Made by a program: the position numbers and the translations under genes
From: Myxococcales bacterium
GTDB taxonomy: Bacteria > Myxococcota > Myxococcia > Myxococcales > Anaeromyxobacteraceae
Direction: 5' to 3'
Length of the DNA stretch: 10,774 nt
Assembly: GCA_038320275.1 (NCBI GenBank)
Contig: JBBQEB010000130.1
Location: 1 to 10,774, forward strand
The notes under the pieces: model-generated
Seen by the model: the letters and a program-made list of their open reading frames with translations, nothing else
Databases searched by the model: none
What the model was told of the DNA's origin: nothing
Shown here: positions 1 through 6,572 of the stretch, in pieces
How the letters are laid out: each line of letters starts with the position of its first letter
Numbering within the stretch: the stretch's first letter is position 1

Positions 1-1299
1 GGAGCACGTTCTTCAGCAGATTTGAAAGGAGCGTTGGCCGGCAAAGTCCGGGCCGTGGAGTTCCGTGGCTGGGGCCAAGTTTCGACTCTAGATGCGAGTG
101 CTTTCACGGAGGGGTGCGACCTCATCATCACGGATCCGCCCTATGCGGATGCCGTGATGTACGAGGAGATCACCGAGTTCTTCATCGCCTGGCAGCGGAC
201 CCGCCCGCCCGCGCCATTCGCAAGCTGGGTCTGGGACAGCCGCCGCGACGTAGCCATCACCGGCTCCGGGGAGAGCTTCCGCCGCGAGATGGTGAAGGCT
301 TACTCCGCCATGACCGCGCGCATGCCCGACCACGGGCTGCAGGTGGTCATGTTCACGCACCAGGACGCGGGCGTCTGGGCCGACATGGCGGGCATCTTCT
401 GGGGCGCTGGCCTTCAGGTCACGGCCGCCTGGTACATCGCCACCGAGACCACCTCCGAGCTCAAGAAGGGCGGCTACGTGCAGGGCACCGTCCTCATGGT
501 CCTGCGCAAGCGGCGCGGCACCGCATCCGGCTCCACGTCCGCTTACAAGGACGAGCTGGTGCTCGAGCTGCGACAGGAGGTCGCGAAGCAGATCGAGACC
601 ATGGTCGGCCTGAACCAGCGCACCAAGGCGCACGGCCGGTCGGAGAACCTCTTCGAGGACGCAGACCTCCAGATGGCCGGCTACGCCGCCGCCCTGCGGG
701 TCATCACCGCCTACACCCACCTCGACGGGCAGGACATGACGCGGGAGGCGGTGCGGCCGCGCATCGCCGGACAGCAGTCGCTCGTGGACGAGCTCATCGA
801 GTTCGCCGTCGCCACCGCCAACGAGCACCTCATCCCCGAGGGGCTCGATGCCCACGTCTGGGCGCGGCTCTCCGGGAGCGAGCGCTTCTACCTGCGCATG
901 CTCGACGTGGAGCGCGCCGGCGGAAAGAAGGTCGACAACTACCAGAACTTCGCCAAGGCCTTCCGGGTGGCGAGCTGGAAGCCGCTCATGGCGAGCGAGC
1001 GGGCCAACGACGCCCGCCTCAAGTCCGCCGCCGAGCTGAAGCGCGCCGAGTTCTCTGGCGAGTTCGGCGAGTCCATGCTGCGCGCCGTGCTCTACGCCCT
1101 CCACGAGCTCCAGTCCGAGGTGGAGGGGGACGAGGTGCTGAGCCACCTGCGCGACAACGTCAAAGACTACCTCAGGCGCAGGCCCGACCTCGTCGCTGCC
1201 GCCGAGTACCTGGCGAGGAATCTGGAGCGCCGCCGCCCCGAGGAGGCCTCGGCCGCGCGCGTGCTCACGGGGCTCGTCCGCAACGAGAAGCTCGCGTGA
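1..1299 (+). CDS. DUF1156-type amino (adenine) DNA methyltransferase of a restriction-like anti-phage system, C-terminal part (5'-truncated by the window edge)
   Basis: Frame +1 is open from base 1 (GARSSADLKG...), so TTG at 22 is probably not the real start. Catalytic motif IV is present (LIITDPPYADAVMYEEITEFF), along with FTHQDAGVW and GGYVQGTVLMVLRKR segments typical of this family. GC3 bias is strong after about 110. Stop TGA at 1297-1299. A PLD-SNF2 gene follows. Confidence 0.9.
   Translation, partial: GARSSADLKGALAGKVRAVEFRGWGQVSTLDASAFTEGCDLIITDPPYADAVMYEEITEFFIAWQRTRPPAPFASWVWDSRRDVAITGSGESFRREMVKAYSAMTARMPDHGLQVVMFTHQDAGVWADMAGIFWGAGLQVTAAWYIATETTSELKKGGYVQGTVLMVLRKRRGTASGSTSAYKDELVLELRQEVAKQIETMVGLNQRTKAHGRSENLFEDADLQMAGYAAALRVITAYTHLDGQDMTREAVRPRIAGQQSLVDELIEFAVATANEHLIPEGLDAHVWARLSGSERFYLRMLDVERAGGKKVDNYQNFAKAFRVASWKPLMASERANDARLKSAAELKRAEFSGEFGESMLRAVLYALHELQSEVEGDEVLSHLRDNVKDYLRRRPDLVAAAEYLARNLERRRPEEASAARVLTGLVRNEKLA
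1291..1299 (+). repeat. 9-bp direct repeat CTCGCGTGA, left copy (includes methylase stop)
   Basis: An exact copy lies at 2022-2030; the pair brackets the TA-containing slot. Confidence 0.8.
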
Positions 1300-1322
1300 C
1301 CCGGCGCGTGACCGCCGCCACG

Positions 1323-1634
1323 TCAGCGCAGCCGCGGCAGCCGTCCGCGGGCCGTGTGCCAGACCGCGTGGATCGTCACGAGACGATGAGCGTCATCGAC
1401 CGTGAAGTAGAGATGGTAAGCGGTCCGGCGGAGGAGCAACCGGCGCGCTCCGGCAGGACGCGGAACATCGTAGGGACTACCGCTGTGCGGGGCGTCCACG
1501 AGCTGCTGAACCGCCTCGGTCAGCTCACGCGCGAACAGCCTGGGCGCCCAGGGGCGGTTCGCCTCCCACCACCCGCCGATGGTACGCAGGTGGCGCTCCG
1601 CAACTGCGGTGAACTGGACCGAATAGGGGTTCAC
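1323..1634 (-). CDS. Type II toxin, RelE/ParE family (103 aa)
   Basis: Size, N-terminal YSVQFTAVAERHLRTI and C-terminal YHLYFTVDD...VTIHAVWHTAR follow the ParE pattern. The GTG start overlaps the antitoxin stop (GTGA, 1631-1634). Confidence 0.85.
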   Translation of the reverse strand: MNPYSVQFTAVAERHLRTIGGWWEANRPWAPRLFARELTEAVQQLVDAPHSGSPYDVPRPAGARRLLLRRTAYHLYFTVDDAHRLVTIHAVWHTARGRLPRLR

Positions 1635-1855
1635 CCGCTTCGGTTCAGCTCGGCGAGCACGTCGGCGGCGGGGCGAAGTCGCCCGGCGGCTACGTCATCC
1701 TCCGACTCGGCCAACGCCGCGTGCAGCGCAGCCCGCTCGACGTCGTCCAGGTCGGCACCGTCGACGATCTCGACCTCGACCTCCGCACCCTCCGGAAGCT
1801 CCGTCGGCTCATCGACGACGAGGCGTCCCCCTCTGACGTGTGCCATGAGGCGCAT
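1631..1855 (-). CDS. Cognate antitoxin (about 74 aa) with an AF2212/DUF104-like N-terminus and an acidic helical C-terminus
   Basis: Hidden at the end of the 530-aa shadow ORF: MRLMAHVRGGRLVVDEPTELPEGAEVEVEIVDGADLDDVERAALHAALAESEDDVAAGRLRPAADVLAELNRSG. It is small, acidic, and lies upstream of and coupled to the toxin. Alternative ATGs are at 1846 and 1870; the latter overlaps the predicted -10. Confidence 0.82.
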   Translation of the reverse strand: MRLMAHVRGGRLVVDEPTELPEGAEVEVEIVDGADLDDVERAALHAALAESEDDVAAGRLRPAADVLAELNRSG

Positions 1856-1865
1856 CGGCTCCGGA

Positions 1866-1894
1866 ATCATAGCCGCCCGCGGCCGAGCTGGCCA
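1866..1894 (-). promoter_or_regulatory. Sigma70-like promoter for the TA operon
   Basis: The minus strand reads TGGCCA (1894-1889) - 17 nt - TATGAT (1871-1866), 10 nt before ATG 1855. The palindrome GGCCATGGCC (1890-1899) overlaps the -35. Confidence 0.65.
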
Positions 1895-1952
1895 TGGCCC
1901 CCCGGTCGGTCGAGAAGCCCGCTCCGGAGGCCGGACCCTCAGGCATCCCCCT

Positions 1953-2030
1953 GCCCTGCGCGACGTCGCGCTGTCGGAGCACGCGTCGAGCCTCATCCAC
2001 GGCAGCGTCGAGATCGGGGCCCTCGCGTGA
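1953..2030 (+). pseudogene. Probable 3' remnant of a lost cargo gene (ALRDVALSEHASSLIHGSVEIGALA*)
   Basis: 25 consecutive codons (1953-2027) end in G/C in a stretch with no other gene. The stop TGA overlaps the helicase GTG start. Confidence 0.45.
2022..2030 (+). repeat. 9-bp direct repeat CTCGCGTGA, right copy (includes helicase GTG start)
   Basis: Exact copy of 1291-1299. Confidence 0.8.
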
Positions 2031-4735
2031 TCAAGCGCTACTCGTCGAGGCTGGAGCGGCTCGACCACGTCTTCCTGCGGGAGAAGCTGAAAGGGGCCCG
2101 GCGCTACCGGCGCATCGCCGGGTACTTCCGCAGCTCGCTCTTCGAGCTCATCCACGAGGAGCTCGAGGGCATCGAGGAGATCCGCATCGTCTGCAACGCC
2201 GACCTCGACCCGCGCGACGTCGGCGTGGCGCGCTCGGCCGAGCAGCAGGCGATGGCGCTCAGGGAGAGGTGGAACGAGCGCGCGCCCGAGGCGGACAGCG
2301 TGCTCGGGCGCGACCGCTACCGCCGGCTGCACGCGCTCCTCGTGAAGGGCAACCTCCAGGTCCGCGTCGTCGACCGGACCACCTCGGCGTTCCTGCACGG
2401 CAAGGCCGGGGTGATCGAGGGGAAGGGAGGCGAAAAGACCTCCTTCCTCGGCAGCATCAACGAGACGCGCGAGGCCTGGTCCGAGAACTACGAGCTGGTC
2501 TGGGAGGACAGCTCCCCCGAGGCGGTGGACTGGGTCGAGGGCGAGTTCGAGTACCTGTGGGCGCAGGGGGTGCCACTCCCCCGGGCCATCGTCGAGGAGA
2601 TCGACCGCTGCGCGCGCCGGGTCGAGTACCGGAGGCCGGAGGACTGCCCGCCCGAGAAGCTCCCGGCCGCGGCCATGGCCGAGGCGCCCATCTACCAGCG
2701 GGGCGAGCGGCTCATGCCCTGGCAGCAGGCCTTCGTCAGCCTGTTCCTCGATCACCGCGCCACCTACGGCAAGGCGCGGCTCCTGCTGGCGGACGAGGTG
2801 GGCCTGGGAAAGACGCTCTCGCTGGCGACCAGCGCGCTCATGGCGAGCCTCCTCGGCGACGGGCCGGCGCTGGTCCTCTGTCCAGCGACGCTCACCCTGC
2901 AGTGGCAGGTGGAGCTGTGGGATCGGCTCGGCATCCCGTCGGCTGTCTGGACCACCAGGAAGACCTGGCTCGACCACACCGGCCACCACATCCGCACGCG
3001 CGGCCCGGAGGACGTGGCCCGCTGCCCGTACCAGATCGGCATCGTCTCTACCGGGCTCATCGTCCAGCACACGCCCGAGCGCCAGGCGCTGCTCGAGCGC
3101 TCCTACGGGACGCTTGTGCTGGACGAGGCGCACCGCGCGCGCGCGGCGCGGGGGATCGGGCAGTCGGGCGATCCCAACAACCTCCTCCAGTTCGTGCAGC
3201 TCGCGGCCAAGCGAGCGCGGCACGTCCTGCTGGGGACGGCGACGCCCATCCAGACCGACACGGCCGAGCTGTGGGACCTCCTCGACGTGCTGAACCGGCA
3301 GGGGGAGTTCGTCCTGGGGAAGCTCACGTCACCGTGGCGCTCGGCCGGCGCCGCGCTCCCGCTCGTCACCGGCAAGGAGCTGGTGGACGACGAGGGCTCC
3401 GCCTGGAACCTCGTCCGGAATCCGCTCCCGCCGGCACGCGAGCACGCGCTGTTCGACCTCTTGCGCACCGAGCTGCGGCTTGGTACGGGCGAGTTTTTCA
3501 CCAGCAGGGCGGCGACGGACCTGGACGACTCCGTGCGCGAGGAGCTCCTGGAGGAGATGGCCGGGCGGCCCGCCGGCCTGAGCTTCTTCCAGCGGAACAA
3601 CCCGGTGGTGCGGCACACCGTCCTGCGCCGGCGGGCGACCCTGGAAGGCAAGGGACTCCTGCCGCGAATCGAGGTCTGCATCCACCCGGGCCGGCGAGAC
3701 GAGTACGGCTTCTTCTCGGGGCTGGCGCTCCGGACGGACGCGCCCATCGACCGCGCGTACCAGGCGGCCGGCCGGTACACCGAGCTCCTCGCCCGCCGGA
3801 CGCAGGCGGCCGGCTTCATGAAGAGCCTCCTCCTGCAGCGCATCTGCTCGAGCCTCGCGAGCGGGCTCTCCACGGCCGAGAAGCTCCTCGCCAGGGAGCC
3901 ACTCGGCGAGGCCGAAGGCGAGGACGACGGCGCCCTCCCCGAGCTCGACGGCGGGGCGGCGCTGGCCGGGATCACCCCAGCCGAAAAGGCCGCGCTGCGG
4001 GAGGTGGTGGAGGCCCTCTCCGAGAGGCCGGCCGACCCCAAGCTCGACGCCGTGTGGCACTACCTCTCGCAGCTCGGCTGGCTCGGGCTCGGCTGCATCG
4101 TCTTCAGCCAGTTCTACGACACCGCCTCCTGGGTGGCCGAGAGCCTCACCGCGCGCCTTTCCGGCGAGCCCATCGCCGTCTACGCCGGCGCGGACAGGAG
4201 CGGCATCTTCCGCGACCGCCTCTGGACCTCGGTGGAGCGCGACACCATCAAGCGGGCGGTCCGGGAGCGCGAGGTCCGCCTGGTGGTGGCCACCGACGCC
4301 GCCTGCGAGGGCCTGAACCTCCAGACGCTGGGCACGCTCATCAACGTCGACCTGCCCTGGAACCCCTCCCGGCTGGAGCAGCGCATCGGCCGTATCAAGC
4401 GGTTCGGGCAGTCCCGGACCAGCGTCGACATGCTGAACCTCGTCTACGCGGGGACCCGTGACGAGGCCGTCTACGAGCGGCTCTCGCAGCGCATGAAGGA
4501 CCGCTACGACCTCTTCGGCTCCCTCCCTGACGTCATCGAGGACGACTGGATCGAGGACATCGAGCGCCTGGAAGAGAGGCTCGCGGAGTTCATCGAGCGA
4601 AAGAAGGCCGCCCTGAACGCCTTCGACGTCCGGTACTCCGACGCGGTGGACCCGAAGGGCGAGCCCTGGGGAACCTGCGCCGAGGTGCTCGCGAGGCGGG
4701 ACGTGGTGGAGCGTATGTCGCGCGGGTGGGCGTGA
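2027..4735 (+). CDS. Phospholipase D-like nuclease / SNF2-family helicase fusion anti-phage protein (902 aa)
   Basis: Start GTG 2027 (VIKRYSSR). PLD motif HGKAGVIE...FLGSINET; Walker A LLADEVGLGKT; DEAH; motif III TATP; motif V ATDAACEGLNLQ; motif VI DLPWNPSRLEQRIGRIKRFGQ. Confidence 0.93.
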   Translation: MIKRYSSRLERLDHVFLREKLKGARRYRRIAGYFRSSLFELIHEELEGIEEIRIVCNADLDPRDVGVARSAEQQAMALRERWNERAPEADSVLGRDRYRRLHALLVKGNLQVRVVDRTTSAFLHGKAGVIEGKGGEKTSFLGSINETREAWSENYELVWEDSSPEAVDWVEGEFEYLWAQGVPLPRAIVEEIDRCARRVEYRRPEDCPPEKLPAAAMAEAPIYQRGERLMPWQQAFVSLFLDHRATYGKARLLLADEVGLGKTLSLATSALMASLLGDGPALVLCPATLTLQWQVELWDRLGIPSAVWTTRKTWLDHTGHHIRTRGPEDVARCPYQIGIVSTGLIVQHTPERQALLERSYGTLVLDEAHRARAARGIGQSGDPNNLLQFVQLAAKRARHVLLGTATPIQTDTAELWDLLDVLNRQGEFVLGKLTSPWRSAGAALPLVTGKELVDDEGSAWNLVRNPLPPAREHALFDLLRTELRLGTGEFFTSRAATDLDDSVREELLEEMAGRPAGLSFFQRNNPVVRHTVLRRRATLEGKGLLPRIEVCIHPGRRDEYGFFSGLALRTDAPIDRAYQAAGRYTELLARRTQAAGFMKSLLLQRICSSLASGLSTAEKLLAREPLGEAEGEDDGALPELDGGAALAGITPAEKAALREVVEALSERPADPKLDAVWHYLSQLGWLGLGCIVFSQFYDTASWVAESLTARLSGEPIAVYAGADRSGIFRDRLWTSVERDTIKRAVREREVRLVVATDAACEGLNLQTLGTLINVDLPWNPSRLEQRIGRIKRFGQSRTSVDMLNLVYAGTRDEAVYERLSQRMKDRYDLFGSLPDVIEDDWIEDIERLEERLAEFIERKKAALNAFDVRYSDAVDPKGEPWGTCAEVLARRDVVERMSRGWA

Positions 4736-4844
4736 CCGACGATGCCATGCCTGCGGTCGAACGGTGCCGCGGCGTTCGATGACGCCCGAACCGTGCTTGG
4801 AGAGCGGCGCGAAGGGAGCGGGAAGTGGTCTGATCGTGCGTCCT

Positions 4845-4877
4845 GTCGAGCATCTGTGGAGCATTGGTCGAGCATCG
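4845..4877 (+). repeat. Three tandem 11-bp imperfect repeats
   Basis: GTCGAGCATCT / GTGGAGCATTG / GTCGAGCATCG. A fourth GAGCAT core is at 4910-4915. Confidence 0.85.
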
Positions 4878-4893
4878 ATCACGCGCCCCGCGC

Positions 4894-4915
4894 TGTCAGA
4901 CCTGCGTGCGAGCAT
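4894..4915 (+). promoter_or_regulatory. PafBC/RecA-NDp-like promoter motif upstream of the HNH gene
   Basis: TGTCAG-N10-GA-N3-T, compared with the actinobacterial consensus TGTCRG-N10-TA-N3-T. ATG 4923 follows a 7-nt gap after the final T, as expected for a leaderless mRNA. Confidence 0.45.
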
Positions 4916-4922
4916 GTTCACC

Positions 4923-6572
4923 ATGTGTGCCGCTCCCACCGACGATCCTGCCCGCGCCGTGGGGCAGCTGGCGGGCGCGGAGGCGGTCCTGGACCTCGAG
5001 CCGTTCACCTCGGCGGAGCTGGACGCGCTCTTTCGCGGAGGGGAGGCGGAGGCGGACGCCTGCGAGGCGATCCTGGCGCGGGCGGCGCGGGCGCGCGGCG
5101 CGGTGGACGTCGGGCTCGCGGAGGGCCTTCACGCGCTGCGGCAAGGCGATCGGCTGCCCCAGCTCGGCTGCCACCTCGACGACTACGCGCGCGAGGTGCT
5201 CGACCTGGGGAAGCGCGCGGCGGAGGAGCTGGCGCGCCTGGGCCGCGAGCTGGGCAGCCGGCCGCTGCTGCGCGAGGCGCTCCGGTCGGGCCGGGTCAGG
5301 CTGCGCGCCGCGCAGACGGTGCTCGGGGTCGCGAAGGGTGGCGACGAGCGGATCTGGGTGGAGCTGGCGGCGCGGCTCACGGTGCGCGAGCTGGAGGACC
5401 GGGTGCGCCGGGCGGGCGCGCTGCCCGACGAGGACGAACCCTGGCTGACCCTGCGCGCCACGCTCGACGACGAGGAGCGCGCGGCGGTGGACGAGGCGCT
5501 CGAGCTCGCCGGCGAGCTGATGCCGGGGTCGAGCCGCATGGAGCAGGTCGAGGCCATCGCTCAGGAGCTGGCGGGCGTCCTGCCAGCGCACCCCGACATC
5601 CCCGACGCCGACCACCTCCGCGAGCTGTGCGGGGTGCTCCGGCCCGTCCACCCTGCCGGCGGGGAGCGGGTGCGTGCGGCCGAGCTGGAGGCCGAGACGG
5701 AGCGGTGGGCGCTCCTGTCCGCGCTCCCCGACGTGCCGGTGCCCGGGGTGCCCCTGGAAGCCGGAGTCACCGCCCAGGAGCTCGATGCCGCCCTCCGGGA
5801 GCTGGCCCGGCTGCGGTCCCAGTGGGACGACGTCGTCGGCTACTGCGGCCTCGCCGTCAAGAAGAGCCGGCTGTACCAGCTCCTCGGCTTCGCCAGCTTC
5901 CGCCAGTATTGCGAGGAGCGGCTGGGGCTCTCCGCCCGCTCCGTCGAGCAGCGCGCAGCGGTGGAGGAGCGGCGCTGGCGCTCGTCCGAGCTCCGCGAGG
6001 CGAAACGGCAGGGCTTGCCCTTCGAGAAGCTGCGGCTCCTCACGCGCCTCCCGGACGGGGAGCTCGCGTCCTGGACGCCCCGGGCTCACGCGCTCACCTG
6101 CATCGAGCTGCGGCGCGCGCTGGAGGGCGAGACAGAGCGGCAGCTGCGCGCGCGGCGCACCATCCGGGTGCCTCTGCCCATCCGCATCGCAGCCCTGCTC
6201 GCCGCAACCATCCATGCCCTCCGGGAGCGCCTCGCGACGCCCCTCCCGGTCGGAACCTGCCTGGCGCTGCTCTCCCAGCACTTCGTGGACACCTGGCGCC
6301 GCGCCGTGAAGGTCGCCCGCACCCGTTCCAGGAAGGTGCGCGACCGCGACGGAGGCGAGTGCCAGGTGCCGGGCTGCAGCCACCGCGCGGCCCACGCCCA
6401 CCACGTCCTCTTCCGCTCCCAAGGCGGCGACGATGAGCAGGCCAACCTCGCCGGGATGTGCGCCTACCACCACCTGCGCTGCCTCCACGGCGGCTTTCTC
6501 GGCGTCGCCGGCCGCGCGCCCGCCCTGCGTTGGTCGCTCCTCGGCCAGCCGTGGGAGGGGCCACGGCCGTGA
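4923..6572 (+). CDS. HNH endonuclease with tandem DUF222-like N-terminal modules (about 549 aa)
   Basis: The C-terminus VRDRDGGECQVPGCSHRAAHAHHVLFRSQGGDDEQANLAGMCAYHHLRCLH is a Zn-finger HNH of the type found in DUF222/13E12 proteins. GC3 bias is strong from about 4923. The start could also be ATG 4914. Confidence 0.88.
   Translation: MCAAPTDDPARAVGQLAGAEAVLDLEPFTSAELDALFRGGEAEADACEAILARAARARGAVDVGLAEGLHALRQGDRLPQLGCHLDDYAREVLDLGKRAAEELARLGRELGSRPLLREALRSGRVRLRAAQTVLGVAKGGDERIWVELAARLTVRELEDRVRRAGALPDEDEPWLTLRATLDDEERAAVDEALELAGELMPGSSRMEQVEAIAQELAGVLPAHPDIPDADHLRELCGVLRPVHPAGGERVRAAELEAETERWALLSALPDVPVPGVPLEAGVTAQELDAALRELARLRSQWDDVVGYCGLAVKKSRLYQLLGFASFRQYCEERLGLSARSVEQRAAVEERRWRSSELREAKRQGLPFEKLRLLTRLPDGELASWTPRAHALTCIELRRALEGETERQLRARRTIRVPLPIRIAALLAATIHALRERLATPLPVGTCLALLSQHFVDTWRRAVKVARTRSRKVRDRDGGECQVPGCSHRAAHAHHVLFRSQGGDDEQANLAGMCAYHHLRCLHGGFLGVAGRAPALRWSLLGQPWEGPRP

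Follow-up and report, generated by a model that had tools for sequence, protein, structure and literature searches.

A ParE-type toxin-antitoxin cassette antisense between the methylase and helicase genes of a myxobacterial MANTIS operon

Genes and features of the locus

The DNA analysed here (referred to as the window) is a stretch of 10,774 nucleotides (nt) from a Myxococcales bacterium of the family Anaeromyxobacteraceae and corresponds to an entire contig, C130, of a 4.1 Mb assembly (G+C content ∼70%). It holds part of a restriction-like defence operon in which a toxin-antitoxin (TA) pair is nested, on the opposite strand, between the methylase gene mtsC and gene mtsD, encoding a PLD-nuclease/SNF2-helicase. 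The features concerned are the following (aa, amino acids).

1-1299, plus strand: 3′ part of mtsC, DUF1156 N6-adenine methyltransferase with DPPY motif (PADLOC PDLC02189, 8e-173; NF042963)
1291-1299: left copy of a 9 bp direct repeat, CTCGCGTGA, which includes the stop codon of MtsC (repeat search)
1296-2030, plus strand: 244-codon open frame, from the overlap with the MtsC stop to the overlap with the MtsD start (frame analysis)
1634-1323, minus strand: ParE-family toxin, 103 aa, GTG start (PF05016 ParE_toxin, 39.1 bits versus a cut-off of 23)
1855-1631, minus strand: antitoxin, 74 aa, N-terminal beta hairpin and acidic C-terminal helices (open frame; family weakly RelN-like)
1894-1866, minus strand: sigma70-type promoter of the TA pair, TGGCCA-17-TATGAT (motif scan)
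2022-2030: right copy of the direct repeat, CTCGCGTGA, which includes the GTG start codon of MtsD (repeat search)
2027-4735, plus strand: mtsD, PLD-nuclease/SNF2-helicase, 902 aa, intact (PDLC02193, 1248 bits; NF042964, 1181 bits versus a cut-off of 1100)

Both TA genes are intact. The GTG start codon of the toxin gene overlaps the antitoxin stop codon by 4 nt, and the pair is conserved, as an upstream antitoxin match on the same strand was detected by tblastn for 24 of the 28 toxin loci, counting that of the window. The predicted structure of the toxin (pLDDT 92) matches RelE/ParE structures: comparison with the PDB gave 33 matches at E ≤ 0.001 and, among the matches listed, all are RelE/ParE-superfamily toxins. 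TM-scores ranged from 0.69 to 0.78 for ParE entries, versus 0.47 to 0.67 for the RelE, YoeB, HigB and YafQ RNases. The toxin would thus probably poison gyrase, although the best E-value belongs to a RelE. At the sequence level its top PDB match, a weak one (E 0.084), is the RelE/StbE-family toxin 7etr, which we take to be ParESO. The antitoxin matched no family above cut-off and gave a weak AF2212-like match; no structural match above Z 2.7 and no significant PDB sequence match were obtained for it. At a threshold of E ≤ 0.1, 11 of the 17 aligned members of its family weakly match the RelN model NF050107 (best 6.7e-5), with which the window's own antitoxin gave no match, and four show weak RelB/ParD matches. 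Both proteins are ordinary family members, and neither of them contains an extra sensor domain. In the literature, gyrase-inhibiting ParE toxins are set apart from the RNase members of the superfamily, for which defence roles have been argued (PMC11980606).

The promoter motif was found once, versus 0.0±0.1 times in shuffled sequence. A TAnnnT box is present at the equivalent position in 23/23 TA loci (the window and 22 relatives; the other five of the 28 toxin loci, which lack a full antitoxin match, were excluded), versus 79/2221 control windows. The antitoxin ATG is located only 10 nt past the -10 box, and we therefore infer that the TA transcript would be near-leaderless.

The DUF499 ATPase gene, the DUF3780 gene and the 5′ part of the methylase gene are located on a second contig (L021, G000:C162). 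The order DUF499 ATPase, DUF3780, DUF1156 methylase, PLD-helicase is present, and all four are matched by dedicated PADLOC models. Contig C162 overlaps the start of the window at 92% identity, and the operon join therefore runs to a divergent methylase allele. Judging from translations and alignment, the DPPY motif of the methylase and the PLD, Walker A and DEAH motifs of the helicase are all intact. The operon is a Gao_RL system, now named MANTIS (bioRxiv 10.64898/2026.09.23.753747), which is Type-2 BREX-related and is also called Type-2 BR (PMC12839542). As a kind, MANTIS is marked by hemimethylation of adenine in a 6-bp site and by restriction that depends on the orientation of the sites. 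A preliminary description of this DNA was correct in both of its structural claims, namely a Gao_RL-like host operon and, between its methylase and PLD-helicase genes, a complete antisense TA pair with its own promoter.

Two divergent versions of the methylase gene overlap near the end of the target-recognition region (window 1-372 versus L021 1-378). Their peptides differ before the DPPY motif, and identity after it is 92% (over 255 nt). Positions 12-178 of the window also form a separate contig of depth 2.8, versus depth 8 for the remainder. This suggests that the population contains two MtsC specificity alleles; the assembly has one helicase.

The cassette is a derived insertion

The insert is 731 bp long, and the 9 bp direct repeat at its exact junctions constitutes a target-site duplication; positions 1291 and 2030, given in the preliminary description as end points of the module, are the outer ends of this repeat. 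Deletion in silico of one repeat copy together with the intervening DNA yields a 4 nt stop/start overlap between mtsC and mtsD, as found in the closest relative, L026, the MANTIS locus of a Myxococcaceae genome (G378) belonging to the same order as the window's genome and to another family. The rebuilt junction aligns with L026 without gaps (88/120 and 100/120 nt identical). Beyond the shared GTGA, the repeat comprises five extra matching letters, which would be expected by chance with a probability of ∼0.002. The 4 nt overlap is likewise present in the other close relatives L027, L030, L031 and L033. In a tree of the helicases of 77 loci, obtained by a quick method with SH-aLRT support only and from which L090 and L096 were excluded as too short, the window is sister to L026 in a myxobacterial clade of seven loci (support 97). 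Because the six other loci of this clade, the nearest ones to the window, are all empty at the junction, the TA cassette is a single derived insertion and the ancestral junction was empty.

No transposase frame is present in the 731 bp insert, and no end-to-end terminal inverted repeat was found among the 25 longest of 80 repeat pairs. We infer integration by microhomology. Target-site duplication as a general rule for cargo at this junction was rejected, since a comparable repeat spanning the junction is absent from the other 32 inserts; the TA relatives at L156 and L157 have flanking repeats of 20-21 nt, of other kinds. The 160 bp from the promoter to the right repeat were considered as a gene remnant, and this candidate was also dropped after six-frame comparison with the genome, the MANTIS loci and the TA loci gave no convincing match. 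A second short repeat, CGCGTGACC, occurs in two copies at 12 nt spacing (window 1293-1313) and overlaps the left direct repeat; it is possibly an insertion scar.

Cargo at the mtsC-mtsD junction and distribution of the TA family

The preliminary description had called for a survey of the methylase-helicase interval for recurrent toxin cargo, and such cargo was indeed found. We analysed 100 other loci containing the start of a MANTIS helicase gene; the methylase gene is also on the DNA in 78 of them. Scoring a gap of at least 200 nt as an insert, inserts were present at 32/78 mtsC-mtsD, 14/60 mtsB-mtsC and 1/54 mtsA-mtsB junctions; the significance of the difference between the first and the last of these (Fisher, 3e-8) is overstated since kin are not independent. 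Among the loci from even genome samples 14/28 carry an mtsC-mtsD insert, and on the helicase tree the cargo state of this junction changes at least 12 times on well-supported branches. Complete TA pairs are present at eight of the 78 junctions. The TA cargo at mtsC-mtsD is as follows.

L041, L196, L090 and L180: MNT-HEPN pair (in L041 and L196 near-identical, antisense, and with intact helicase N-terminus)
L096, 757-2494: DarTG
L169: DUF433/DUF5615
L188: DUF4160/DUF2442
L197: BrnTA
L044, L179, L187 and L189: single TA-type genes

Another 12 inserts hold GmrSD (L046, L059, L186), Schlafen (L047, L177), ABC-ATPase with RloB or DUF4276, YhcG, Menshen (L186) or PDC-M28 (L171, L175), and the other eight either lack a clear gene or carry a TPR protein or unnamed genes. 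At the mtsB-mtsC junction a Gp49-like gene is present in L188 and YhaV in L197, both presumably of the RelE superfamily.

Some of the nested cargo amounts to whole defence systems, namely Menshen-like (L186:1050-4313), PDC-M28 (L171:11214-14079, L175:1101-3909) and DarTG (L096:757-2494, L174:4021-5732), at either MANTIS junction. Junction cargo without Pfam or PADLOC match was found at L082:4601-5995, L084:5249-5896, L170:1063-1740, L089:2879-3997, L046:6733-7962 and L175:7210-8946; these genes are candidates for new defence genes.

No copy of the window's TA pair was recovered from the 100 other MANTIS loci, whether by tblastn or by a profile search over 1.04 Mb; one distant ParE, in L040, is located ∼3 kb downstream of the helicase gene and is not nested. 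The family of the pair is a resident of the host lineage that roams among myxobacteria: the window's genome has three copies, and toxin relatives, at 28 loci in all, occur in 15/61 genomes searched (the window's included) and in 12/36 of the same family. The 86 candidate neighbours at 21 relative loci, for which flanks of 1.5 kb were scanned, are mostly housekeeping genes (including pgi, mutL, Glu/Gln-tRNA synthetase, cytochrome bd and dehydrogenases), other TA genes or mobile genes (including an integrase, an IS-type integrase core and a diversity-generating retroelement), and Pfam identified no MANTIS gene among them. Near-identical promoter regions recur in unrelated contexts (L150/L167, 92% over 75 nt; L143/L157, 94% over 79 nt), which fits a cassette that moves as a unit. 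A close donor was found neither in 91 other genomes of the family (E ≤ 1e-22) nor in 250 other genomes of the phylum (E ≤ 1e-21), and close relatives of the toxin comprise five proteins at 60-84% identity. One TA relative, in L152:389-3286 (G043), is located inside a diversity-generating retroelement, between the reverse transcriptase and bAvd/FGE-sulfatase genes.

MANTIS was found in 9/401 genomes of the phylum, including the window's, and in 0/66 other genomes of the same family. Relatives of the MANTIS helicase are carried by 20 PLSDB plasmids, seven of which are from Acinetobacter. Directly upstream of the ATPase gene lies a minus-strand gene of 307 aa (L021:5886-6806) without Pfam or PADLOC match, which may belong to the acquired block. 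At the thresholds used, the upstream macro-domain gene is present in 5/5 genus genomes tested; neither the 307-aa gene nor the GMC oxidoreductase gene located downstream was found in any of the five, and these comparisons did not delimit an empty site. Downstream of mtsD, a plus-strand frame of 600 aa (window 4764-6572) has an HNH-like motif at its end and a weak IscB match, and lacks a Pfam match. It matches ∼20 other contigs of the genome at 80-89% nt identity, and a fragment of it is present at the far end of C162; it resembles a mobile element, present in multiple copies, that flanks the operon.

Possible roles of the cassette and comparison with known systems

We hold with moderate confidence that the ParE-type cassette is an autonomous addiction-type module that stabilises the locus, and not a sensor wired to MANTIS. 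The two-gene cassette with its own promoter has inserted antisense, with a 9 bp duplication, at the methylase-helicase junction, a site that presumably tolerates inserts because both the stop codon of MtsC and the start codon of MtsD are preserved by the duplication. Extrapolating from the family, the antitoxin would bind and neutralise the toxin; if the DNA were lost, the antitoxin would decay and the toxin would poison DNA gyrase. Insertion at this tolerant site would make loss of the region costly. The cassette is self-contained, with its own promoter, its own antitoxin and no added sensor domain. By likeness to ParE32/CopG32, which maintains a defence island of Shewanella (PMC12016545; for review context see PMC12548467), addiction would be the simplest reading. 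The preliminary description had also mentioned an addiction module preventing loss of the island. This idea finds a precedent in the Shewanella module, but the island as such is not established, as neither an integrase nor an att site was detected near the operon on C130 or C162. Besides this lack of signs of mobility, several other observations weigh against stabilisation of the locus as the role of the cassette. The lowest Foldseek E-value for the toxin was obtained with RelE (3g5o), so that gyrase is not certain to be its target. Neither a metabolic gene nor a transposase was identified among the 32 mtsC-mtsD inserts, and the strong bias of this cargo towards TA and defence genes points to selection for defence and not to neutral parking. 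Finally, the toxin relatives with 60-84% identity might sit in defence loci.

Because of this cargo bias, an independent role in abortive infection has to be considered, in which host shut-off by a phage would deplete the antitoxin and the freed toxin would abort infection by phages that escape restriction. Such a second line of defence, which we judge possible but unlikely, would be in line with the recognised defence systems at other mtsC-mtsD junctions, with the repeated changes of cargo state, with the backup effectors proposed for BREX-related loci (PMC12839542) and with the TA promoter, which would make the pair independent of the operon. However, the scanned loci show no enrichment of TA relatives next to defence genes, neither TA protein matches PADLOC, ParE-family cargo is present at mtsC-mtsD in none of the other 78 loci, and the available main text of PMC12839542 names neither ParE nor RelE. 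It is rather doubtful that the mtsC-mtsD slot would be dedicated to interchangeable second-line defences, the ParE cassette being a new recruit that adds a gyrase-poisoning abortive layer while a relay frame, kept open by the duplication and by the length of the insert, preserves restriction; if this were the case, the unnamed cargo in L082, L084, L089 and L170 would represent undiscovered defence systems. The relay refers to the 244-codon plus-strand frame, which is uninterrupted between the MtsC stop and the MtsD start and has no Pfam match in the part scanned (1721-2026). This frame is probably a shadow frame, although it could possibly pass ribosomes from MtsC on to MtsD. As a selected feature the relay was discarded, since the equivalent span is open in 3/22 other TA modules (one of the 22, L160, being mis-framed), leaving only a weak hint. 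The same region bears on another explanation that we consider improbable, according to which the cassette would be a regulatory or polar insertion that uncouples mtsD from mtsC, and head-on transcription would cut or delay nuclease production, thereby easing autoimmunity or partly disabling restriction. The 4 nt overlap of the closest relatives is broken here, the plus strand of 900-2600 yielded no promoter-like site, no clear Shine-Dalgarno sequence precedes 2027, and a TA between hsdS and hsdR of Casimicrobium accompanies separate transcription of the two halves (PMC13515534). On the other hand, mtsD is intact and scores above its family cut-off, the open frame is not rare, and the antisense TA cargo of L041 and L196 coexists with an intact helicase N-terminus.

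The preliminary description had put forward a layered system and named PrrC as an example of a nested second-line toxin; a system wired like PrrC is not supported. The toxin would in that case be restrained in a MANTIS-dependent manner and be freed when a phage inhibitor blocks the complex. The position of the pair within the operon resembles that of prrC in ecoprrI (PMC12707154), and anti-MANTIS mechanisms have been inferred to exist (bioRxiv 10.64898/2026.09.23.753747). Nevertheless, we regard a guard of this kind as very unlikely because the association with MANTIS is unique and recent: the insertion is single and derived, the six nearest loci are empty and all 100 other MANTIS loci lack the pair. 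In addition, the pair is antisense and self-promoted, has its own antitoxin, shows no extra sensor domain in either protein, and its family usually sits beside housekeeping genes. Hardly credible, finally, is an assembly artefact or a chimera of two strains. The contig starts in the region of the two divergent methylase alleles, but a 2160 nt contig of a separate assembly (Logan) spans window positions 253-2412, including both junctions, with one letter different, and no joint that skips the insert was found in that assembly. As the Logan run possibly is the window's own source sample, this is a check of the assembly and not independent support.

As a single locus the window carries little weight, both of its components being of known kinds, and the junction-specific hotspot is the more useful result. 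Extra genes are present at the mtsC-mtsD junction in ∼40% of loci, and nearly all the identifiable ones are of the TA or defence type, while interruptions between the ATPase and DUF3780 genes are very rare. New defence systems can therefore be sought at mtsC-mtsD, and software that relies on gene adjacency to detect systems may overlook MANTIS loci or break them up. Moreover, the empty L026 and the filled window form a before/after pair with which it can be asked whether a TA module that has landed protects, stabilises or lowers nuclease expression.

MANTIS has been described as a standalone system of four genes (bioRxiv 10.64898/2026.09.23.753747), and the window's operon has the same four core genes in the same order. 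It differs in that a 731 bp antisense TA cassette splits mtsC from mtsD; the available preprint text makes no mention of toxins. Toxic backup genes inside BREX-related loci have been catalogued (PMC12839542), and these effectors are, as here, toxic cargo inside a core locus. Their classes (HEPN-MNT, PIN, Schlafen, GmrSD, ABC ATPase with nuclease) also occur at the MANTIS junctions we surveyed, whereas the main text of that study names none of ParE, RelE and DarT; its supplement may list such neighbourhoods. The Shewanella modules ParE32/CopG32 and ParESO/CopASO (PMC12016545) resemble the window's pair in combining a ParE toxin and an antitoxin on a defence-carrying region. Their antitoxins belong to another family, they are not nested in a restriction operon according to the text available, and their elements excise, while no integrase was seen at the window. 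A closer parallel in position is the type I restriction-modification locus RM-C of Casimicrobium huifangae (PMC13515534), where a TA separates the nuclease gene from the modification genes; there, the host is a type I system, the toxin is an acetyltransferase, the TA is on the same strand as hsdR and its function is putative. PrrC in EcoprrI (PMC12707154) is likewise a toxic gene embedded in a restriction operon, but it lacks a dedicated antitoxin and becomes active when the restriction enzyme is inhibited. The window's pair, by contrast, is self-contained, and its presence is not conserved along with the host operon. The view that the combination had not been described before thus holds for ParE in MANTIS, as literature searches found no ParE pair inside such an operon, and does not extend to nested backup toxins or to a TA between hsdS and hsdR, both of which are in print (PMC12839542, PMC13515534). 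The locus represents one derived insertion event, in which a member of a common TA family entered a known system at a site of a known cargo-bearing kind.

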